Notes: generated by a model not told the origin, from the letters alone. Counted from the first letter of the stretch, positions 6,322 through 20,339 are shown. The stretch: 32,000 bases of DNA from Candidatus Omnitrophota bacterium (GCA_963662715.1 OY759724.1:2280001-2312000); one strand, 5' to 3'. Numbers and translations: made by a program.

Positions 6322-7584
6322 ATGGAAAAGTTTATTATTGAGGGAAACAGGCCTTTAAAAGGCGAAGTCCGCATCAGCGGTTCAAAGAATGCGACTCTAC
6401 CGGTGCTGGCGGCAACCTTGTTGACCGATGAACCCTGTGTGATCAAAAATGTCCCGTGTCTCAGGGACACCCTGACGATGATTAAGCTTTTGAAAAGTCT
6501 GGGGAAGGACGTCAGCTTTTCAAACAATATCTTGACGATCAAAACGGCGGAGCCGTGTCAGGGGTTTGCCGATTATGCTCTTGTTTCAACCATGCGGGGA
6601 TCATTTTGTGTCTTGGGCCCGCTTCTCGCAAAACTTAAAGAAGCCAAAGTGTCCCTGCCGGGGGGATGTGTTATAGGAGTCAGGCCGGTTGACCTGCATC
6701 TGAAAGGGTTGAAGAGTCTGGGGGCTAAAATTGCCATTGAAAACGGTTATGTGTGTGCTCAAACCAAAGAGCTGCAGGGCCAGCATATTTATCTGGGAGG
6801 GGATTTCGGGCCGTCGGTTTTAGCCACGGCTAATGTTATGATGGCCGCGACTCTGGCCAAAGGCGAGACGGTTATCGCTTCGTCCGCCTGTGAACCGGAA
6901 ATGGAAGATTTGGCCAACTGCCTTATAGCTATGGGGGCGGATATTACCGGTGTGGGATCCCCTCGTCTGACCATCAGAGGCGTCAATCAACTGCACGGCG
7001 TTGAATATGAAATTATTCCTGACCGCATTGAAGCCGGAACCTACATGCTTCTGGCGGCCGCGACCAAAGGCAACCTGAGACTCCTTAATGTTAATGCGAG
7101 TCATCTTTTGGCTCTGATTGATAAACTCACCGAAGTGGGGGTGAAGTTTAAGATAGAAGGGGACTCGGTCTGGATCAGAAGCACGACATCTTACGAGCCG
7201 ACCTCTGTTACCACATATCCTTATCCGGGATTCCCGACAGATCTGCAGGCTCAGTTTATGACCTTGATGGCTTTGACGCACGGGGTGAGTATCATTACGG
7301 ACAAGGTTTTCCCTGACCGGTTTATTCACATCGCGGAATTAAACCGGATGGGGGCGAATATCCGCCGGGACGGCAATACGGCTATTATCGAAGGCGTTAA
7401 AACCTTGTACGGGGCTCCGGTTATGGCGTCCGACTTGCGGGCTTCGGCCGCTTTGGTCATCGCGGGGCTGGCCGCTAAAGGGAAGACAGAAATTCACCGC
7501 ATCTATCACCTGGACCGCGGATATGAAGACCTGGATCAGAAACTGTTGAATTTGGGAGCCAAAGTCTACCGCCAGCAGGATTAA
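6322..7584 (+). CDS. murA: UDP-N-acetylglucosamine 1-carboxyvinyltransferase
   Basis: N-terminus MEKFIIEGNRPLKGEVRISGSKNA and active-site loop PGGCVIGVRPVDLH. The length of 420 aa fits. Confidence 0.95.
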   Translation: MEKFIIEGNRPLKGEVRISGSKNATLPVLAATLLTDEPCVIKNVPCLRDTLTMIKLLKSLGKDVSFSNNILTIKTAEPCQGFADYALVSTMRGSFCVLGPLLAKLKEAKVSLPGGCVIGVRPVDLHLKGLKSLGAKIAIENGYVCAQTKELQGQHIYLGGDFGPSVLATANVMMAATLAKGETVIASSACEPEMEDLANCLIAMGADITGVGSPRLTIRGVNQLHGVEYEIIPDRIEAGTYMLLAAATKGNLRLLNVNASHLLALIDKLTEVGVKFKIEGDSVWIRSTTSYEPTSVTTYPYPGFPTDLQAQFMTLMALTHGVSIITDKVFPDRFIHIAELNRMGANIRRDGNTAIIEGVKTLYGAPVMASDLRASAALVIAGLAAKGKTEIHRIYHLDRGYEDLDQKLLNLGAKVYRQQD

Positions 7585-7603
7585 TCAAACAGGGGATTAT
7601 CAG

Positions 7604-8176
7604 ATGGTTTTAGTGATCGACAATTACGATTCCTTTACATATAACCTTGTACAGTATCTGGGGGCTTTAAAGACAAAGCTGGCCGTTCATCGGAATGATG
7701 CGTTGACGCTTGCCAGGATCAAAAAGATGAAACCGGAGAAGATCGTGATTTCTCCGGGACCTGGCCGGCCGGAAGATGCCGGTATTTCTGTTGATGTCAT
7801 TAAAGAATTCGCGGAGCAGATCCCGATTTTAGGTGTTTGTCTGGGGCATCAGGCGATCGGTTATGCCTACGGGGGAAAGATTATCCGGGCGAAAAGCCTG
7901 ATGCACGGAAAGACCTCAAGTATTACGCACAACGGGGAAGGGCTATTCAGAGATGTGGAAAACCCTTTTGAGGCGACACGTTATCATTCTCTCGTTATTG
8001 ATCCAAAATCATTCCCTGCTTGCCTGGAGATTACGGCCTGGTCTAAAGACCGGGACAAGGAAATCATGGCCTTGCGGCATAAGAAATTCCCGTTATGGGG
8101 CGTTCAGTTTCATCCGGAATCGATTTTGACCCAGTCCGGGAAACAAATATTAGCCAATTTCTTGAAAATCAAATGA
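7604..8176 (+). CDS. trpG: Anthranilate synthase component II (glutamine amidotransferase, TrpG/PabA type)
   Basis: Class I GATase motifs GVCLGHQ and VQFHPES. The stop overlaps the trpD start (ATGA at 8173-8176). Confidence 0.85.
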   Translation: MVLVIDNYDSFTYNLVQYLGALKTKLAVHRNDALTLARIKKMKPEKIVISPGPGRPEDAGISVDVIKEFAEQIPILGVCLGHQAIGYAYGGKIIRAKSLMHGKTSSITHNGEGLFRDVENPFEATRYHSLVIDPKSFPACLEITAWSKDRDKEIMALRHKKFPLWGVQFHPESILTQSGKQILANFLKIK

Positions 8177-9183
8177 AAGAATATATTGAAAAAATCCGCA
8201 GGAACGAAAATCTGAGCAGCCGGGAAATTGAAGCCGTCATGGGCCGTATTATGTCGGGAGAAGCTCCGGACAATCTGGTGGCGGATCTGCTCCTGGCCCT
8301 GAATCTGAAAGGCCCTACCATTGATGAAATCACCGGGGCGGCCCGTCTGCTGCAGAAGTTTTATCTGCCGGTCAAAACAAAACATCCTTTAGTCCTGGAT
8401 ACCTGCGGCACGGGAGGAGATAAAAAGAATACTTTTAACATCTCTACGATTACGGCTTTTGTCGTTGCCGGGGCGGGGGTTATCGTTGCGAAACACGGCA
8501 ACCGTTCGGTTTCCAGTAAATGCGGGAGTGCCGATATCCTGGAAGCTTTGGGGGTCAACCTGGACGTTCAGCATGACCGGTTAGGGACATGTCTGGATGA
8601 GGTCGGAATCGCCTTCCTGTTTGCTCAGAAACTGCACCCGGCCATGAAGAACGTGGCGTCCGTTCGTAAAACGTTGGGGGTTGAGACGATTTTTAATATT
8701 TTAGGGCCGCTTATCAACCCTGCCCGGGCGACGCATCAGCTTATGGGGGTCTATTCCCGGGACCTTGTTGAACCGCTTGCCAATGTCCTGAGAAATTTAG
8801 GTTTAAAAAAGGCGCTGGTGGTTCATGGCCATGACGGTCTGGATGAAGTTTCGACGACGGGACAGACCTTTGTCGCGGAGTGGAACGGCCGGGACATCCT
8901 GTCCTATGATATCTCTCCCGAAGATTTCGGGATACCCTTATCCAAAGATGAGGATTTAAAAGGAGGCGACCTTAAGACGAATCTGTTTATTGCTAAAGAA
9001 ATTCTGGATGGGGTGGGCGGTCCCAGACGGGATGTCGTTGTCTTTAATGCCGCCTATGCTCTCTATGCGGCGGAGAAAGTCCAAGATATTTCCGAAGGAA
9101 TTGCTTTAGCTGCGGAATCATTGGATTCCAGGAAAGCCAAGGCTAAATTAGAGACCTTGATCGAGTTTACGCAGAAACCGTGA
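8173..9183 (+). CDS. trpD: Anthranilate phosphoribosyltransferase
   Basis: DTCGTGGD and AKHGNRSVSSKCGSADILEALG motifs. The start is taken at M27 of the track ORF (ATG 8173, ATGA overlap with trpG). Confidence 0.9.
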   Translation: MKEYIEKIRRNENLSSREIEAVMGRIMSGEAPDNLVADLLLALNLKGPTIDEITGAARLLQKFYLPVKTKHPLVLDTCGTGGDKKNTFNISTITAFVVAGAGVIVAKHGNRSVSSKCGSADILEALGVNLDVQHDRLGTCLDEVGIAFLFAQKLHPAMKNVASVRKTLGVETIFNILGPLINPARATHQLMGVYSRDLVEPLANVLRNLGLKKALVVHGHDGLDEVSTTGQTFVAEWNGRDILSYDISPEDFGIPLSKDEDLKGGDLKTNLFIAKEILDGVGGPRRDVVVFNAAYALYAAEKVQDISEGIALAAESLDSRKAKAKLETLIEFTQKP

Positions 9184-9228
9184 GTGTGCCCCGGAAGGTA
9201 TTTCCCGGGAAGGGTGAAGGGCTAAAGA

Positions 9229-10017
9229 TTGAATGATTTTTTAGAAAAAATTGTCTTACATAAAAGAAGTCTTCTGCGGCGCAAGAAGGCTTTTTTTGAT
9301 GTTTTAAAAGCCAATGTCGGTTCTGCGAAGATGAACCGCTACGGATTATTTAAAGAACGGATTGCCCGGCCCGGACAAATCAACCTCATCGCCGAGATTA
9401 AGAAAGCATCGCCGTCCCAGGGGCTGATTCGTACGGATTTTAATGTCACTGAACTGGCGCGTATTTATGCGGCCCAGGGGGCTGCCGCCATTTCCGTGTT
9501 AACGGAAGATAAATATTTTCTGGGTCACCCCCGGTATGTGCGTCTTGTCAGTGAAAATTTTCCTGTCCCGGTCCTGACGAAAGATTTTATTATTGATGAC
9601 GTGCAGATTTACGAGGCATTTTTAAGCGGTACCAGCGCAATATTGCTGATTGTTGCCATATTGGAGGATGACCAGCTGGTGCGTCTCCAGAATGTGGCCG
9701 TGGAACTTGACCTGGATTGTTTGGTCGAAGTTCACAATCAGCAGGAGCTGGACAGGGCCCTGCAGGCCGGTGCCCAGATTGTCGGAATCAATCATCGCGA
9801 CCTGCATACGTTTGAAGTTGATCTGGGCGTCAGCCGGGAACTGGTGCCTCAAATTCCCGATCACTGTGTCATTGTGGCCGAGAGCGGTGTCCGGACACAT
9901 GAACATATCAAGATGCTGGAAGCTCTCGGTGTTCACGCTGTTTTGATCGGGGAGACCTTTATGCGGGCGGATGATGTCGGCGCCAAAATCAGGGAGGTTA
10001 TGACAGGGGCAGCATGA
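9229..10017 (+). CDS. trpC: Indole-3-glycerol phosphate synthase
   Basis: IAEIKKASPSQG and GINHRDL motifs. TTG 9229 is the first possible start after an in-frame TAA, and it is needed to include the conserved N-terminal helix (LEKIVLHKR). Confidence 0.9.
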   Translation: MNDFLEKIVLHKRSLLRRKKAFFDVLKANVGSAKMNRYGLFKERIARPGQINLIAEIKKASPSQGLIRTDFNVTELARIYAAQGAAAISVLTEDKYFLGHPRYVRLVSENFPVPVLTKDFIIDDVQIYEAFLSGTSAILLIVAILEDDQLVRLQNVAVELDLDCLVEVHNQQELDRALQAGAQIVGINHRDLHTFEVDLGVSRELVPQIPDHCVIVAESGVRTHEHIKMLEALGVHAVLIGETFMRADDVGAKIREVMTGAA

Positions 10018-10081
10018 TATCCTCCTGCGGTGCTCAAAGTCGAGGGGGGGAAGGGTTATAATTTCAGAGGGGAGAGATAAG

Positions 10082-10702
10082 ATGGTCCGAATTAAAATTT
10101 GTGGCATGACGAATTCAAAAGATGCCCTCCAGGCCGCTTCTTGCGGGGCCTGGGCCGTGGGTTTTATTTTTTACAAGAAAAGTCCCCGCTGCGTCGGAGC
10201 TTTTAAAGCGCAGAGAATTATTGATCAACTGCCGCCTTTTGTGACGCCTGTGGGGGTTTTCGTAAATCAGAAAGAGGGGGCGGTTAAAGAGATCGCCCAA
10301 TTTTGCGGAATTAAAACCCTGCAGTTCCACGGGGACGAAACGCCTGAATACTGCCGAAGGTTCAAGAAGGGATATAAAATTATTAAGGCCGTCCGGCTCG
10401 GAAATCAAATAGACTTGGATAACCTGAAAAAATATTCCGTTGACGCTCTTTTGTTTGATACTTACCAGGAAAAGACCTACGGAGGAACAGGCCAGACTTT
10501 CCCTTGGCGGTTAGCTAAGAAAGCCAAAGTTCTGGGTCTGCCGATTATTTTGTCCGGTGGGCTTGCCCCCCAGAATATCAGAGAAGCCATCGAAGACGTC
10601 AAGCCTTATGCGGTCGATGTCTGCAGCGGTGTCGAAAAAAGCCCTGGTCAGAAAAATAAACACGCCTTACAGGAATTTATTGATTTGGTCAAGCTGGCAT
10701 AA
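10082..10702 (+). CDS. trpF: N-(5'-phosphoribosyl)anthranilate isomerase
   Basis: IKICGMT, LQFHGDE and YGGTGQTFPW motifs. Confidence 0.9.
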   Translation: MVRIKICGMTNSKDALQAASCGAWAVGFIFYKKSPRCVGAFKAQRIIDQLPPFVTPVGVFVNQKEGAVKEIAQFCGIKTLQFHGDETPEYCRRFKKGYKIIKAVRLGNQIDLDNLKKYSVDALLFDTYQEKTYGGTGQTFPWRLAKKAKVLGLPIILSGGLAPQNIREAIEDVKPYAVDVCSGVEKSPGQKNKHALQEFIDLVKLA

Positions 10703-12534: not shown

Positions 12535-14037
12535 ATGAGTTCTTTTAACGTTATATGCCAGCGAGTTGACAGTTTCTTGAGAGATAAGACTTGTCATAAA
12601 CTCATTATCCTTGCAGGGATATTTTTCCGTTTGACCCAATATTTTTATAACCGCTCCTTATGGTTTGACGAAGCTTATGTCGCCAATAAGCTCATAAAAT
12701 TTTCTCTTTCAGAATTAATCCAGGGGCCTTTCCCGGAGAAATCCTTGGCTTACCCTTTTGGCTTTTCCTTTATAGAAAAAATAATGGTTGTTTTGTTCGG
12801 GAGCCACGAATATGTTTTTCGTTTTTTTCCTTTGTTTTACGGGGTGATATCCCTGATCCTTTTTTATGCCCTTATTATCCACGTCCTATCTCCCAGAGCC
12901 AGATTTGTTGCCTTATGCCTGTTTGCTTTTTCCCCTTCATTAATTCTGTATTCGACAGAGTTGAAACCTTATTCGGGGGATGTCGCCTTTGTGTTAATGT
13001 TTATGGTGGCTATAAAATGGTTCCTTGATAACAAATTAACAAAACGATCGGTGTCGTTCGTGAGCCTTTTAGGCGGTATTCTCATATGGTTCTCTCATCC
13101 CATAATATTTGTTTTGGCGGGGGCAGGGATAGTTCTGTCCATTATTAAAATAAAAGAGAGGAAGGAGCCGTTGTGGCGTCCTTTGGCCTTTGTCCTTTTT
13201 TCCTGGATGTCCAGTTTTGCCCTGAATTATTTCTTTGTCCTGAGGGTTTTCTCCCGGGGGGAGTATCTTACGGATTATTGGGCGAAGTTTTTTTTGCCCG
13301 TGTTTCCGGTAAAACTGGTCAACCTGATTTTTCATTACACCATTTTTCTTGATGTGTTCCGTTATCCGGTCAGCGCGAAATTCCCCTTTTTGTGTAGTAT
13401 TTTATTTCTTGCCGGTTGTGTGAAAATGTTTTACCGTGAACGGCGGGACTTTTTCCTTCTCATCAGCCCTATCGTGATCACTCTATTGGCATCGGTTCTG
13501 CACATATATCCTTTCTTTGAACGTTTAATATTGTTCCTTGTCCCTTTTTATATCCTCTTTGTTGCGGAAGGGGCTGACGGTGTTATCGAAAGAATTAAAT
13601 ATAAAAATATTTGCCCTCTGCTCATGTTGCTCTTTGTCCTGCCGGCATTTTTTACCGAATGTTCACGTGTGGGAGACCCTTCTTTTTATCGTTATGAGGA
13701 AAGCCGAGAGGTGGTCCGGTATATGGTGGAACATAAACAAGCGGGGGATTATTTTATTTTGCCGGATAAATCCCAAGCGGCTTTTCGATTTTATTCTGGC
13801 CGAATGAATTTCGTCCCGTCCGCCAGCGGCATTAAGGTGTTGTCCTGCACGCATGAACTGCAATCCGTAATTAAGTCTGTATCCGGCAGAGACCGCTTCT
13901 GGTTGTTTTTGGCCCATGTGGGCAAAAAGGATAAAGAATTTATGCTGGAGATGATGCATCATCATGCCGAACTTGTTGATTCCTTTTTTCAGTCGGGTGC
14001 CCGAGCTTACCTTTTTCAGATAGAACCCGATCCGTAA
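12535..14037 (+). CDS. Polytopic membrane protein, GT-C fold glycosyltransferase (family 39 / ArnT-PMT like)
   Basis: Many hydrophobic segments. The SLWFDEAY motif follows the first TM, as in ArnT/PMT_2-type enzymes. A roughly 120-aa soluble C-terminal domain follows. AGGAGA lies 9 nt upstream of the ATG. Confidence 0.6.
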   Translation: MSSFNVICQRVDSFLRDKTCHKLIILAGIFFRLTQYFYNRSLWFDEAYVANKLIKFSLSELIQGPFPEKSLAYPFGFSFIEKIMVVLFGSHEYVFRFFPLFYGVISLILFYALIIHVLSPRARFVALCLFAFSPSLILYSTELKPYSGDVAFVLMFMVAIKWFLDNKLTKRSVSFVSLLGGILIWFSHPIIFVLAGAGIVLSIIKIKERKEPLWRPLAFVLFSWMSSFALNYFFVLRVFSRGEYLTDYWAKFFLPVFPVKLVNLIFHYTIFLDVFRYPVSAKFPFLCSILFLAGCVKMFYRERRDFFLLISPIVITLLASVLHIYPFFERLILFLVPFYILFVAEGADGVIERIKYKNICPLLMLLFVLPAFFTECSRVGDPSFYRYEESREVVRYMVEHKQAGDYFILPDKSQAAFRFYSGRMNFVPSASGIKVLSCTHELQSVIKSVSGRDRFWLFLAHVGKKDKEFMLEMMHHHAELVDSFFQSGARAYLFQIEPDP

Positions 14038-14085
14038 TATTATCTGAGCGTTACGAATCAGCAGGTTTGAGAGTGCCCCGGCGTC

Positions 14086-14114
14086 TTGTCTCGGCCGGCA
14101 TTATATGTTATATT
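14086..14114 (+). promoter_or_regulatory. Sigma-70-like promoter: -35 TTGTCT, 17-nt spacer, extended -10 TGtTATATT
   Basis: TTGTCT at 14086-14091, TG at 14106-14107, TATATT at 14109-14114. The predicted start near 14121 coincides with the first base of the 12-bp closing helix of the downstream RNA. Confidence 0.5.
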
Positions 14115-14120
14115 TCAAGT

Positions 14121-14359
14121 AAGCCGATAAAGGTAAACTTGAGGAAACTCGAGGACACAAAACTCCAGACCTAAGTTATTCGAGAACCGGGAGGGCCCTG
14201 AAGTTCGGGGCAGGCGTAGACGGTGTGTGGTTATTAGGATGATAAGGTGGCTGAGTTGCCGTGAGCTGGTTGTGGGGTTAACATCCCGTCTTTATCGGCT
14301 TGTTTTCTTTAATACCAACCCTTATTGTTAAAACTCCGTTAACAGTAAGGGTTTTTTTT
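14121..14359 (+). ncRNA. Candidate structured small RNA of unknown class, bounded by a promoter and an intrinsic terminator
   Basis: The perfect 12-bp helix AAGCCGAUAAAG (14121-14132) / CUUUAUCGGCUU (14290-14301) encloses about 157 nt. Local hairpins inside it are CUUGAG-GAAA-CUCGAG (14138-14153) and GCCCUG-AAGUU-CGGGGC (14195-14211). A 7-bp long-range pairing AACUCCA (14161-14167) / UGGGGUU (14273-14279) is also possible. There is no plausible ORF. A terminator follows immediately. Confidence 0.5.
14319..14359 (+). terminator. Rho-independent terminator
   Basis: A 13-bp stem (14319-14331 / 14339-14351, one G-U pair) with a 7-nt loop is followed directly by eight T residues (14352-14359). 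Confidence 0.8.
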
Positions 14360-14564
14360 ATCCCGGATCCGCAAGGATTGAAGACGTCCGGGCATCAAAG
14401 GCGTGCTCTCGCTTCCATGGCAAACCCGTTGAATAACTTTGAGATAAGCCGTTTTTACGGGCGCCTGTCCTGTCCTCTGCCCGGCACCCGGACGCCATCA
14501 CGGAGCAAAGACAAGACTTTTTCGTCCAATCGTTAATGAAATCCTATCATATATAAAAAAATAT

Positions 14565-14572
14565 GTTATAAT
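14565..14572 (+). promoter_or_regulatory. Extended -10 element TGtTATAAT directly upstream of the Zn-ribbon ORF
   Basis: TG at 14565-14566 and TATAAT at 14567-14572. It shares the identical 10-mer ATATGTTATA with the promoter at 14103-14112. Only 10 nt separate the -10 from ATG 14583, and no SD is present. Confidence 0.4.
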
Positions 14573-14582
14573 ATCACCTCAA

Positions 14583-14888
14583 ATGAGCCAACAAAAACTA
14601 ATACGAGTTTATCAAGATCTCGATTTGAAAGATATAAAAGAGCATCTGCTTATTTACGGGGACTTGTCCGGGGCCTGCGCTAACTGCCAAACTGTTGATA
14701 TCAAATTGAACCAGGCCAAGTGTCCCGATTGCCAAACGGAATTCAAGTATATTGCCTTCCGAAACATTAAGAATCATTATCCTAAAGTCCATCATATAAA
14801 GACAGAGCGCCCGGATATCCTGATTGTTGATCATGATGACTACAAGCGTATGATGGGAGCTTTGAAAGCCGAGGAGTTTTTGAAATGA
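14583..14888 (+). CDS. Hypothetical 101-aa protein with a CxxC-x13-CxxC zinc-ribbon motif
   Basis: CANCQTVDIKLNQAKCPDCQ. The stop overlaps the start of the next gene (ATGA at 14885-14888). Confidence 0.55.
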   Translation: MSQQKLIRVYQDLDLKDIKEHLLIYGDLSGACANCQTVDIKLNQAKCPDCQTEFKYIAFRNIKNHYPKVHHIKTERPDILIVDHDDYKRMMGALKAEEFLK

Positions 14889-18323: not shown

Positions 18324-19505
18324 ATGATGAAAAGCAAGACGAAAAAAGGATATTTTAATGCTTTCGGCGGGCAATATGTGCCGGAAACTTTAATGGCTTT
18401 GCTGGAGGATTTAGAGAAGACATACCGCCGTTTTAAAAAAGACCGGTCTTTTAAAAGAGAGTTTGCTTTTTTCTTGCGGGAATATGCCGGCCGGCCGACC
18501 AACCTCTACTATGCCCGGCGTTTGAGCGCTCATTTAAAAAAACTTAAAGTCTATCTCAAACGGGAAGATCTCCTTCACACGGGCGCGCATAAAATCAATA
18601 ACACTTTAGGGCAGATTCTGGTGGCCAAGGAGATGGGGAAGACCAGGATTATCGCCGAGACCGGAGCCGGGCAGCACGGCGTTGCCACTGCGACGGCCTC
18701 AGCGCTTTTTGGATTGAAGTGCGAAATTTATATGGGGGTGGAAGATATCCAGCGCCAGGCCCTGAATGTCTTTCGTATGCGTTTGCTGGGCGCGCAGGTT
18801 AACCCGGTTACGAGCGGTTCCCAAACCCTTAAAGACGCCATGAACGAAGCTATACGTGATTGGGTGACCAATGTCCATGATACGTTTTATATCATTGGTT
18901 CCGTTGCCGGGCCGCATCCGTATCCTGTGATGGTGAGAGATTTTCAGGCGGTAATCGGGCGTGAAGCCAAGCGGCAGTTTTGCAGGATGGAACAGGGTTT
19001 GCCGGATTATGTTTTGGCCTGCGTGGGCGGGGGCAGTAACGCTATGGGCCTGTTTCATGCTTTTTTTAAGGATAAGTCTGTTAAAATGATCGGAGTGGAG
19101 GCTGCCGGCCTGGGTATCCATTCCGGGCAGCATGCGGCCCCGTTATCCGAAGGAGCGGTCGGTGTTTTGCACGGCAGCAAGAGCGCTTTGCTGCAAACGA
19201 AAGACGGACAGATCAAGATCGCCCATTCTATTGCGGCCGGGTTGGATTATCCCGGAGTCGGGCCGGAACATGCTTATTATCAAAGTATCGGCCGGGCGCG
19301 GTATGAGGCTGTCGATGACGCCAAGGCGATCAAGGGGTTGAAGCTGTTGTCAGAGACAGAGGGGATTATTCCTGCTCTGGAAACGGCTCATGCCATCGGA
19401 TATCTGGAAACACTGGCGCGCCAGCAGAAAAAACAGGCGACCGTCATCGTATGTCTTTCCGGAAGAGGGGACAAGGATGTCGGGACAATTAAGGATCTTG
19501 TTTAG
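18324..19505 (+). CDS. trpB: Tryptophan synthase beta chain
   Basis: HTGAHKINN (PLP lysine), GGGSNA, and a canonical N-terminus ([10 protein letters not shown]). Confidence 0.95.
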
Positions 19506-19532
19506 CCCCTGTTCGGGGTTGGAGTATTCGGA

Positions 19533-20339
19533 ATGAACAGAATTGACCTGAAATTTCAAGAGTTGAAAAGAAACAAACAGAAAGCCTTTATCGCTTTTGT
19601 AACGGCGGGAGATCCGCATTTAAAGATAACGGAACAGCTTGTTTATGCTTTGGAAGACAGCGGTGTGGATATGATTGAGCTGGGCGTCCCGTTCTCTGAT
19701 CCTTTGGCAGACGGCCCGACCATTCAGGCCTCTTCGTACCGGTCCCTGCAGAAGGGCACGACGTTGAAGGGGATTTTTCAGTGTGTGTCACAGATCAGGA
19801 AACGGTCCGCGATCCCGATCGCGTTGATGACCTACTACAATCCGGTCTTTCATTTTGGGGAAAAAGCGTGTGTTCGCGCTTGCCAGGAGGCCGGAGTCGA
19901 TGGGCTGATTATTCCGGATCTTCCTCCTGAGGAAGCGGGCACTTTGCTCTCCGCGGCCCGTCCCGGCGGAATTTCAACGGTTTTTTTTGTCGCTCCGACC
20001 ACTCGTCCGGAACGCATGCGTATGATTGCCAAGGTGTCTACCGGATTCATATATTATGTTTCTGTGGCCGGAGTGACCGGGGCCCGTCAAATGCTGCCGC
20101 GCGACCTTATTGCCCACGTTCAGGCTGTCAAACAGACCAGCTGGAAACCGGTTTGTGTGGGGTTCGGGATTTCAACGGCGCAGCAGGTCCGGCAGATAAG
20201 CCGGATAGCTGATGGCGTGATTGTGGGGAGTGCTATTATTAAAGAAGTTGAAAAACATCAGGGGAAAAAGGATCTTGTCCCCAGGGTCAGCCGGATGGTT
20301 GCCGGTCTTACCGCCCCATTAAGGATAAAAAGGAGATAA
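19533..20339 (+). CDS. trpA: Tryptophan synthase alpha chain
   Basis: ELGVPFSDPLADGPTIQ signature. The 268-aa gene directly follows trpB. Confidence 0.95.
   Translation: MNRIDLKFQELKRNKQKAFIAFVTAGDPHLKITEQLVYALEDSGVDMIELGVPFSDPLADGPTIQASSYRSLQKGTTLKGIFQCVSQIRKRSAIPIALMTYYNPVFHFGEKACVRACQEAGVDGLIIPDLPPEEAGTLLSAARPGGISTVFFVAPTTRPERMRMIAKVSTGFIYYVSVAGVTGARQMLPRDLIAHVQAVKQTSWKPVCVGFGISTAQQVRQISRIADGVIVGSAIIKEVEKHQGKKDLVPRVSRMVAGLTAPLRIKRR

Follow-up and report, generated by a model that had tools for sequence, protein, structure and literature searches.

Genomic context of the RNA unit

The window analysed here is a stretch of 32,000 nucleotides from a Candidatus Omnitrophota bacterium (GCA_963662715.1 OY759724.1:2280001-2312000). 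Positions are counted from its first letter, and all features described below lie on the + strand. The longest gap of the window between ORFs of at least 90 aa (14038-14582), recognised as such in an earlier reading of this DNA (hereafter the original prediction), contains a promoter, a structured RNA, terminator signals and a second promoter, and is followed by the gene of a conserved 101-aa zinc-ribbon protein (14583-14888). This gene heads a tightly packed run of + strand genes extending to 21621 and encoding an M20 deacylase, a DUF3108 protein, a TolB-like protein, and the trpB and trpA products. The 101-aa protein has two CxxC pairs and 54 homologues of about 100 aa, all of them from Candidatus Omnitrophota metagenome bins where a source is named. 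Searches in Pfam and NCBIfam, a PDB sequence search and a Foldseek comparison of its AlphaFold model (pLDDT 87) with the PDB gave no significant match.

The promoter of the RNA (14086-14114) was detected by a consensus scan and is of the sigma-70 type, with a -35 box TTGTCT (14086-14091), a 17-nt spacer and an extended -10 box TGtTATATT (14106-14114). It shows 9 of 12 hexamer matches in addition to the TG extension, and its predicted start (about 14121) falls on the first base of a long helix closing the RNA, as had been proposed. Among 46 related units, TAnnnT stands 5-9 nt before the sequence GCCGA in 45, the TG extension is present in 36 and TTG is found at the -35 spacing in 43. At the other end, an intrinsic terminator (T2, 14317-14359), already described as a stem followed by T8, was returned by a terminator scan as a 15-pair stem (14317-14353) with U8 and a loop of 7 nt; compensatory changes preserve it in the related loci L001-L003. 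Promoter and terminator signals, by which an RNA gene of its own would be recognised, are both present and conserved as sequence signals. The general picture drawn by the original prediction, of a structured RNA with its own conserved promoter, closed by a long helix at the predicted start and ending at intrinsic terminators, is upheld by these data.

Assignment to the c-di-GMP-I family

With gathering thresholds, an Rfam search of the entire window gave one match only, RF01051 (c-di-GMP-I, GEMM-I), at 14122-14263, with 63 bits and an E-value of 2.9e-10 (gathering score 35) and an alignment covering model positions 1-87 of 87, i.e. the full length of the model. A second, permissive scan of positions 13950-14650 again gave this match, and the additional matches obtained there were weak and all located on the terminator region; a trpB motif match (26 bits vs 59) and similarly weak RybB and microRNA models were judged to be due to chance. 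Homologous loci score between 35 and 72 bits with RF01051. The structured RNA is almost certainly a c-di-GMP class I (GEMM-I) riboswitch, with c-di-GMP as its predicted ligand.

The c-di-GMP-I-GGC variant (RF03167) was set aside, the clan match retained in the window being RF01051; the threshold of RF03167 (59) is touched only by the loci L003 (59.1) and L039 (61.5). A cGAMP riboswitch (GEMM-Ib) was likewise rejected. Such riboswitches reportedly have A instead of G at position 20; the window and each of the 20 aligned relatives have G there, and it is for this reason that c-di-GMP is the predicted ligand.

The original prediction had found no family for this RNA, had proposed an undescribed class, and had listed c-di-GMP among the signatures checked by eye and judged absent. 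Neither the novelty nor the absence of the signatures can be maintained: the cmscan search suggested at that time gives a significant match to a known family, from one end of the model to the other, and the relatives match the same family. The match was probably overlooked by eye because of a 58-nt insertion in the tip of the second hairpin. This 58-nt branch, an extra hairpin and the long closing helix are outside the Rfam consensus and could be taken as marks of a new class, but the match is full-length and high-scoring, every signature position is present, the extras are peripheral additions to the GEMM-I fold, and related loci have aptamers of canonical size with the same closing helix. 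A membership in an undescribed class is considered extremely improbable. The family is known, and this RNA is, by its alignment, a further member of it from an uncultivated Omnitrophota bacterium, with unusual extras.

Aptamer architecture and ligand pocket

In the Rfam alignment, the aptamer consists of a 6-bp P2 hairpin (14138-14153, also in the MFE fold) capped by a GAAA tetraloop (14144-14147), a P3 stem (14161-14257, with 14161-14180 pairing with 14239-14257) which carries the tetraloop receptor (CCUAAG, 14170-14175, and UAAGG, 14243-14247), and a 3' tail GCCGUG (14258-14263; see also PMC11705072). Tetraloop and receptor are taken to play the roles described for the type 1 architecture (PMC11705072). 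The numbering of Vc2 was transferred by adding 9 to the model position in the Rfam alignment, and was checked against statements in PMC11705072, according to which A33 of Vc2 lies in the GAAA loop, C44 pairs with G83, and G21, G42 and G45 belong to the first hairpin. With this numbering, the equivalents of Vc2 G20, A47 and C92 are G14132, A14159 and C14259, those of C93 and G94 are C14260 and G14261, and the C44-G83 pair corresponds to C14156 and G14250. In Vc2, G20 and C92 contact the ligand, and the pair G14-C93 stacks beneath the pair formed by the ligand with C92 (PMC11705072). The G20 equivalent and the CC are invariant in the 20 aligned relatives, and the A47 equivalent (alignment column 41, not traceable in the list of invariant columns) is A in 20 of 20 aligned rows.

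Structure counts performed on 20 sequences gave 97.7% of cells paired, with changes on both sides in 19 of 37 pairs; the observed values were attained by none of 500 shuffles, and slid controls dropped to 31-48% paired. Covariation on these sequences is strong in P2, P3 and distal P3, with double changes in 5 of the 6 pairs of P2 and covariation in 4 of 10 proximal and 7 of 7 distal pairs of P3. The GAAA-capped hairpin (14138-14153) and the GC-rich hairpin (14195-14211) of the original prediction are both found in the MFE fold. A 7-bp pairing that had been proposed together with them (14161-14167 with 14273-14279) is complementary in the window but is probably not real, its partner not being conserved in the relatives. 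Positions 14161-14164 form the 5' strand of the covarying P3, where they pair with 14254-14257, and the 7-bp pairing was rejected because it competes with this stem.

Only two pairs of a canonical local P1 are possible in the window (G14126-C14260 and C14125-G14261). The domain is closed instead by the 12-bp long-range helix, which overlaps the pocket strand. Binding of the ligand by a GEMM-I RNA without P1 has been described for Cd1 (PMC9262584).

Lineage-specific additions

The unusual extras of this family member are an additional branch, a long closing helix, and a promoter and terminators of its own. Beyond the tetraloop receptor, P3 runs over 6-7 further covarying pairs and then opens into a lineage-specific branch of 58 nt in its tip (14181-14238), which appears as an insertion in the Rfam alignment. 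The branch contains a short helix AACCG/UGGUU (14185-14189 and 14228-14232) and the GC-rich hairpin (14195-14211). Elsewhere the short helix is GGCCG/UGGUC, GCCG/CGGC or GCUU/GAGC. The hairpin of the branch is variable and closed by GCCC/GGGC; the unpaired motifs GAGA, GGGA(A/G)GG, AGAC and UAG are conserved in the branch. The alignment of the branch over 20 loci was too poor for formal covariation counts, and the comparison was restricted to per-sequence folds, which predict a similar branched fold with differing sequences in most of the 20 relatives. As a guess, the branch could be a peripheral stabiliser.

Some relatives have further hairpins in the P2-P3 junction, with Rfam scores of only 35-41 bits. 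These junction insertions push the scores down to the threshold, and such variants may therefore be under-annotated. The MFE fold has one more small hairpin (GGGG UUAACAU CCC, 14274-14287), placed after the aptamer and before the distal strand of the closing helix; most of 47 units also have a hairpin there, with another sequence.

Closing helix and termination signals

The 5' strand of the closing helix (AAGCCGAUAAAG, 14121-14132) includes G14132 and the junction A-run, the latter being conserved throughout the family. Its 3' strand (CUUUAUCGGCUU, 14290-14301), called here the distal strand, has directly on its 3' side a U-rich tract (UUGUUUUCUUUA, 14300-14311) which is a candidate first termination site (T1). 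The perfect 12-bp helix announced by the original prediction can be read directly from these strands, and has 13 bp in the MFE fold of positions 14121-14359 (z-score -3.7; none of 200 shuffles folds as well). On 20 sequences, the 12 pairs of the helix are 97.5% paired and both strands are nearly invariant. Covariation is seen in 2 of the 12 pairs, with a change of the outermost pair from A-U to G-C and one compensated variant in the locus L018 (GAGCCGAAAGG / CCUUUUGGCUC), and the proposed pairing is supported mainly by the conservation of both strands together with this variant. Aptamers of canonical size with the same closing helix exist in units of 124-136 nt (e.g. L072 and L104), and the helix is therefore not tied to the insertion.

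A second partner for the CGGC of the distal strand is available in the aptamer tail, whose GCCG (14258-14261) contains the C92 equivalent. When the RNA from the aptamer GCCG through the distal strand is folded in isolation, 38 of 44 units give a closed hairpin (-9 to -24 kcal/mol) whose end lies at the U tract. In the window, where GCCGUG replaces GCCGAAG, this local pairing is weaker than in most relatives, and the MFE fold of the isolated segment uses positions 14265-14270 (GCUGGU) instead. The U-rich tract has a mean of 7.6 U in its first 12 nt over 46 units, and the 13 units that lack a second terminator have more (8.5 of 12). T1, i.e. the closing helix or the local hairpin followed by 14300-14311, resembles a terminator in form only, and is outside the loop limit of the terminator scan.

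The long closing duplex has a free energy of -17.7 kcal/mol. About 14.6 kcal/mol is needed to force the pocket into a holo-like state, a cost that would be within reach of what nanomolar binding can pay; an affinity of roughly 1 nM is cited in PMC3627812. An alternative partner of the 5' strand was sought by folding transcripts cut just before the distal strand, and the 5' strand was essentially free in these folds. An antiterminator of T2 was sought in 19 loci as the best duplex of the T2 5' half with all upstream RNA, in comparison with shuffles; z-scores ranged from -2.3 to +1.8 and positions were scattered. In the window and in L001, the T2 5' half seemed to match the 3' strand of P3; this match was dropped because the pairing was neither significant nor at a consistent position over the 19 loci. 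As no antiterminator was detectable, T2 was treated as ligand-independent, and it probably acts independently of the ligand.

Conservation of the unit across related loci

At least 45 loci of Omnitrophota and related metagenomes share this conserved unit. A profile-guided scan using one genome per species returned 41 loci, 40 of which were scanned with Rfam; the c-di-GMP-I aptamer was present in 17 of these 40 homologous Omnitrophota loci, spanning 140-188 nt, and 14 of the 17 aptamers were situated just upstream of the zinc-ribbon gene. Three further units with extra insertions were found by a pattern search. In an unbiased metagenome scan with the 17-mer AGCCGATAAAGGYAAAC, about one third of the 120 matches corresponded to GEMM-I units with the same closing helix; the others, about two thirds, were chance occurrences in coding DNA and were discarded.

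The common layout begins with a promoter -10 box ending 5-9 nt before GCCGA, followed by the 5' strand AGCCGAUAAAGG and the aptamer, whose tail is usually GCCGAAG. A variable small hairpin, the distal strand (U/C)CUUUAUCGGCU and the U-rich tract come next, and a hairpin terminator is present 10-70 nt beyond the U-rich tract in about three quarters of the units. Promoter, helix, U tract and hairpins recur in register in 46 independent loci, and this recurrence is far beyond chance.

Downstream genes and their promoter

A second promoter with an extended -10 box (TGTTATAAT, 14564-14572) is found 10 nt before the ATG of the zinc-ribbon gene, in agreement with the original prediction that the next ORF has a -10 element of its own; at this distance, the zinc-ribbon mRNA looks to be of the leaderless type. 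This ATG (14583) has no Shine-Dalgarno sequence, and the gene that follows (14885) has one (GAGGAG). A comparable second-promoter arrangement is present in most of 41 related loci. The motif TGnTATAAT was observed before nearly every zinc-ribbon gene, whether the riboswitch is present or not, either 35-125 nt before an ATG with a Shine-Dalgarno sequence or 7-10 nt before the ATG, the latter position implying a leaderless mRNA. The DNA between the terminator and the second promoter is not conserved, even among the closest relatives. Since the zinc-ribbon gene has its own promoter, the riboswitch would constitute a separate upstream transcription unit, in tandem with the promoter of the gene.

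In 38 of the 41 units with a callable ORF, the downstream ORF is co-oriented with the RNA, usually within 30-500 nt, and the ORFs of the three others look spurious. The zinc-ribbon gene follows in 20 of 20 units taken from genomes and in 4 that were located solely by DNA pattern; in Omnitrophota, an RsmE-like methyltransferase gene, a DAHP synthase gene and a small Cys-rich ORF sometimes precede it. This co-orientation bias favours a cis-regulator over a free-standing RNA gene, and the reading preferred here, to which a probability of about 0.5 is given, is that the unit is a c-di-GMP-sensing transcription attenuator served by its own promoter.

It is rather doubtful that the unit is a stand-alone small RNA which binds c-di-GMP and exerts no read-through control on the downstream gene. 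Such an RNA would always be terminated at T1 or T2, with a product of 185-240 nt whose ends would be clamped in the 12-bp helix, and its possible roles would be those of a buffer or sponge for c-di-GMP, of a trans-acting RNA dependent on the ligand, or of an insulator before the next promoter. A conserved promoter with its start on the first base of the clamp, the presence of one or more terminator signals at the end of every unit, a T2 with no detectable antiterminator, and a separate promoter between unit and gene in nearly all loci, with a non-conserved spacer, would all be consistent with this view, for which the Bdellovibrio merRNA (PMC3627812) and small RNAs containing Vc2 (bioRxiv 10.1101/617340) are precedents. 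However, co-orientation and close spacing in 38 of 41 units are what would be predicted of a cis-regulator and would not be needed by a free-standing RNA gene, and the distal strand, being complementary to the pocket strands and placed beside a U tract, looks like a switching element.

Proposed switching mechanism

For the attenuator, a mechanism with an ON-type T1 and a ligand-independent T2 is put forward tentatively, at slightly less than even odds. Transcription would start at about 14121, P2 (by its GAAA tetraloop) and P3 (by its receptor) would fold and dock, and G14132, A14159 and C14259 would hold c-di-GMP. The distal strand (14290-14301) could pair perfectly with 14121-14132 and partly with GCCG (14258-14261), each of these being one half of the pocket, and either pairing would abut the U-rich tract (14300-14311) and create the terminator-like structure T1. 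Without ligand, T1 would form and transcription would stop near 14305-14311; with c-di-GMP, both partners of the distal strand would be occupied, T1 would be weakened and the polymerase would run on, as expected of an ON switch. A polymerase past T1 would then meet the strong T2 (14317-14359), which would scale the output down, and the read-through fraction would enter the zinc-ribbon/M20/DUF3108/TolB-like/trpBA run. Two serial terminators would keep the fold change and lower the level. Since G20 and C92 of Vc2 contact the ligand and G14-C93 stacks beneath it, neither the inner part of the long helix nor the local hairpin should be compatible with the bound pocket, and since the distal strand can pair with either pocket half and abuts the U tract, ligand binding should suppress T1.

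Several points speak against this ON logic. The outer 5-6 bp of the helix could form beside the U tract in the bound state, and T1 might terminate regardless of the ligand. Covariation is nearly absent from the closing helix (2 of 12 pairs), and the local pairing of tail and distal strand is weaker in the window than in most relatives. The effect of read-through would be reduced both by a strong unconditional T2 and by the promoter that stands before the gene, and a read-through transcript would carry its first ATG internally, with no Shine-Dalgarno sequence.

A switch of the OFF type, in which the ligand would stabilise the outer closing helix and thereby termination, or an effectively locked one, in which tandem terminators would stop transcription regardless, is considered unlikely. 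Ligand binding does stabilise P1 in Vc2 (PMC9262584, PMC11705072), Bc1 has two terminators 28 bp apart with a ligand-insensitive T2 and no response in vivo (PMC11218506), and T2 of the window combines a 15-pair stem and U8 with no antiterminator. On the other hand, the 12-bp helix (-17.7 kcal/mol) forms without ligand, so that ligand-promoted termination would add little; about one quarter of the units have no T2, so that T1 alone must be functional there; and the ligand-contacting bases are intact phylum-wide, which argues against a dead switch.

The internal position of the first ATG in a read-through transcript also bears on a reading, held to be improbable, in which the unit would be a self-contained c-di-GMP-binding RNA placed directly upstream of a leaderless-mRNA promoter. 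In that case, c-di-GMP would pick a short (T1) or a long (T2) isoform or would set the stability of the RNA, and the RNA, or its termination on top of the next promoter, would control this promoter or act in trans. The reasoning is that a read-through transcript could not offer an AUG at its 5' end, and the arrangement of an RNA upstream of a separate promoter is conserved across Omnitrophota and a second uncultivated lineage. If true, genes lacking a leader could in this way be brought under riboswitch control.

Comparison with known GEMM-I systems

The attenuator proposed here was compared with described members of the family. With Vc2 (Vibrio cholerae tfoY), the RNA shares two adjacent hairpins joined by a GGYAAAC...GACRCAAA junction, a GAAA tetraloop on a receptor of the CCUAAG/UAUGG type, the equivalents of G20, A47 and C92, and a helix closing the junction. 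In the Vc2/tfoY locus, too, promoters flank the riboswitch, and small RNAs end just after it (bioRxiv 10.1101/617340). In contrast to Vc2, the RNA of the window has a 58-nt branched extension of P3, and its C92 is separated from the 3' strand of the closing helix by an extra hairpin; only 2 bp of the local P1 are left, and a 12-bp long-range helix, in which the junction A-run and G20 are paired, takes its place; and the RNA is associated with intrinsic terminators, whereas Vc2 works by masking of the ribosome-binding site.

Bc1 (Bacillus cereus group / Bacillus thuringiensis) resembles the attenuator proposed for the window in having two serial termination signals after the aptamer (PMC11218506), of which the upstream one changes with the ligand and the downstream one is ligand-independent and dominant (PMC11218506). 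The T1 of Bc1 is an ordinary separate hairpin, whereas the first signal of the window would be built from the strand that closes the aptamer. The leader of the gene controlled by Bc1 is of the ordinary kind, with a ribosome-binding site, and no promoter has been described between riboswitch and gene (PMC11218506). The mutually exclusive aptamer and terminator folds proposed here, with the ligand preventing termination, would correspond to those of the pilM-type riboswitch of Geobacter and other ON-type GEMM-I RNAs (PMC9262584). The pilM riboswitch differs in that it senses cGAMP through A20, position 20 of the window being G, and in that its terminator is made of the aptamer 3' strand and a downstream strand, whereas the downstream strand of the window has two possible partners, the 5' and the 3' pocket strands.

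As in the merRNA of Bdellovibrio bacteriovorus (PMC3627812), a GEMM-I aptamer is contained in a discrete non-coding unit with its own promoter, which for the window is known from sequence signals. The merRNA has no conserved downstream ORF and occurs in Bdellovibrio only, whereas the unit of the window is phylum-wide and has a co-oriented gene in 38 of 41 cases. Cd1 (Clostridioides difficile) is similar in that aptamer and downstream terminator can coexist, in its little or absent canonical P1 and in its long distance to the regulated gene (PMC9262584), and dissimilar in having a defined antiterminator in competition with the aptamer, by which it is an OFF switch; for T2 of the window, the search over 19 loci revealed none.

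The assignment to RF01051 removes a false lead, and places the RNA in one of the best-known riboswitch classes. From this RNA, c-di-GMP signalling is predicted for Omnitrophota, a phylum of which nearly all knowledge comes from metagenomes. Within the family, the unit brings a conserved design in which one downstream strand, set against a U tract, is able to pair with either half of the pocket, as well as large lineage-specific extensions of P3, joined in some relatives by insertions in the P2-P3 junction. The position of a riboswitch upstream of a separately promoted and apparently leaderless gene raises the question of how read-through could regulate this gene. The genes predicted to be regulated are unlike the usual motility and biofilm set, and comprise the zinc-ribbon protein, the M20 deacylase and neighbours among the genes of aromatic amino acids. 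In the second lineage, the gene downstream of the unit encodes a GH1 glycosidase.

Genes downstream of the riboswitch

The gene that follows the c-di-GMP-I riboswitch (GEMM-I, RF01051; aptamer at 14122-14263) encodes a 101-aa zinc-ribbon protein with two CxxC pairs (14583-14888, plus strand), the conservation of which spans Omnitrophota. AlphaFold predicts its structure confidently (pLDDT 87), and searches of Pfam, NCBIfam, PDB sequences and PDB folds gave no match. Two other units of the Omnitrophota type (L071 and L134) precede instead a gene for a large protein of over 690 aa with an N-terminal hydrophobic segment, for which Pfam gave no match; in Omnitrophota, therefore, the zinc-ribbon gene is not the only one that the riboswitch serves. 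At locus L022, a region directly upstream of the zinc-ribbon gene (2227-2338) matches the Rfam group II intron D1-D4 model, and this match occupies the site of the riboswitch in other loci.

A second set of metagenome units (L049, L059, L060, L068, L078, L081, L094, L119, L129, L147 and L149) has the same promoter and closing helix as the other riboswitch units. A nearly identical terminator, AAUCCCAAC...GUUGGGAUUUUUU, is present in most but not all of them, and the majority of these terminator-bearing units have a TGnTATAAT promoter within 10-15 nt after it. Every unit of the set is located upstream of an ORF of about 405-440 aa; these ORFs align closely, and that of L119, the single member scanned, is a GH1 glycosidase.

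Promoter of the zinc-ribbon gene

In the window, the zinc-ribbon gene is preceded by a TGnTATAAT promoter (14564-14572) and has no Shine-Dalgarno sequence (region 14564-14585). The distance from the end of this element to the ATG is 7-10 nt, both here and, likewise without Shine-Dalgarno, in most of the related loci (upstream regions of L001-L041). A few of them differ, with the promoter 35-125 nt upstream and a Shine-Dalgarno sequence present. The prevailing arrangement, short spacing and no Shine-Dalgarno sequence, suggests widespread use of leaderless mRNAs in Omnitrophota.

Aromatic and tryptophan gene neighbourhood

Aromatic and tryptophan genes of the window are arranged in two blocks, aroA-trpG-trpD-trpC-trpF (6322-10702) and trpB-trpA (18324-20339), about 7.6 kb apart. 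Between them lie, in addition to the riboswitch, a minus-strand gene for a FIST/NosP-like sensor, a gene for a GT39-like membrane protein, and the zinc-ribbon, M20, DUF3108 and TolB-like genes. At two related loci (L031 and L041) a DAHP synthase gene comes after the riboswitch and before the zinc-ribbon gene; at L128 a DAHP synthase gene follows the riboswitch on a contig that stops before any zinc-ribbon gene.

The Rfam trpB ncRNA motif aligned to 14241-14362 by pairing GAUAAGG (14241-14247) with CUUUAUC (14290-14296) and including the hairpin of the second terminator. This weak match is below threshold (26 bits against 59, E 0.26) and was judged to be due to chance. In this alignment, GAUAAGG appears as a third, purine-rich possible partner of the distal strand of the closing helix (14290-14301). 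The trpB gene itself is part of the gene run downstream of the riboswitch.

Aptamers with junction insertions

Eight GEMM-I aptamers (L011, L017, L023, L025, L041, L059, L078 and L118) have one or two additional hairpins within the junction between the P2 and P3 hairpins, inserted after GACG and before CAAAG. Among the ones that were run against Rfam, the score was only 35-41 bits, which is at the gathering threshold, or there was no hit at all; GEMM-I variants with such insertions may be under-annotated.
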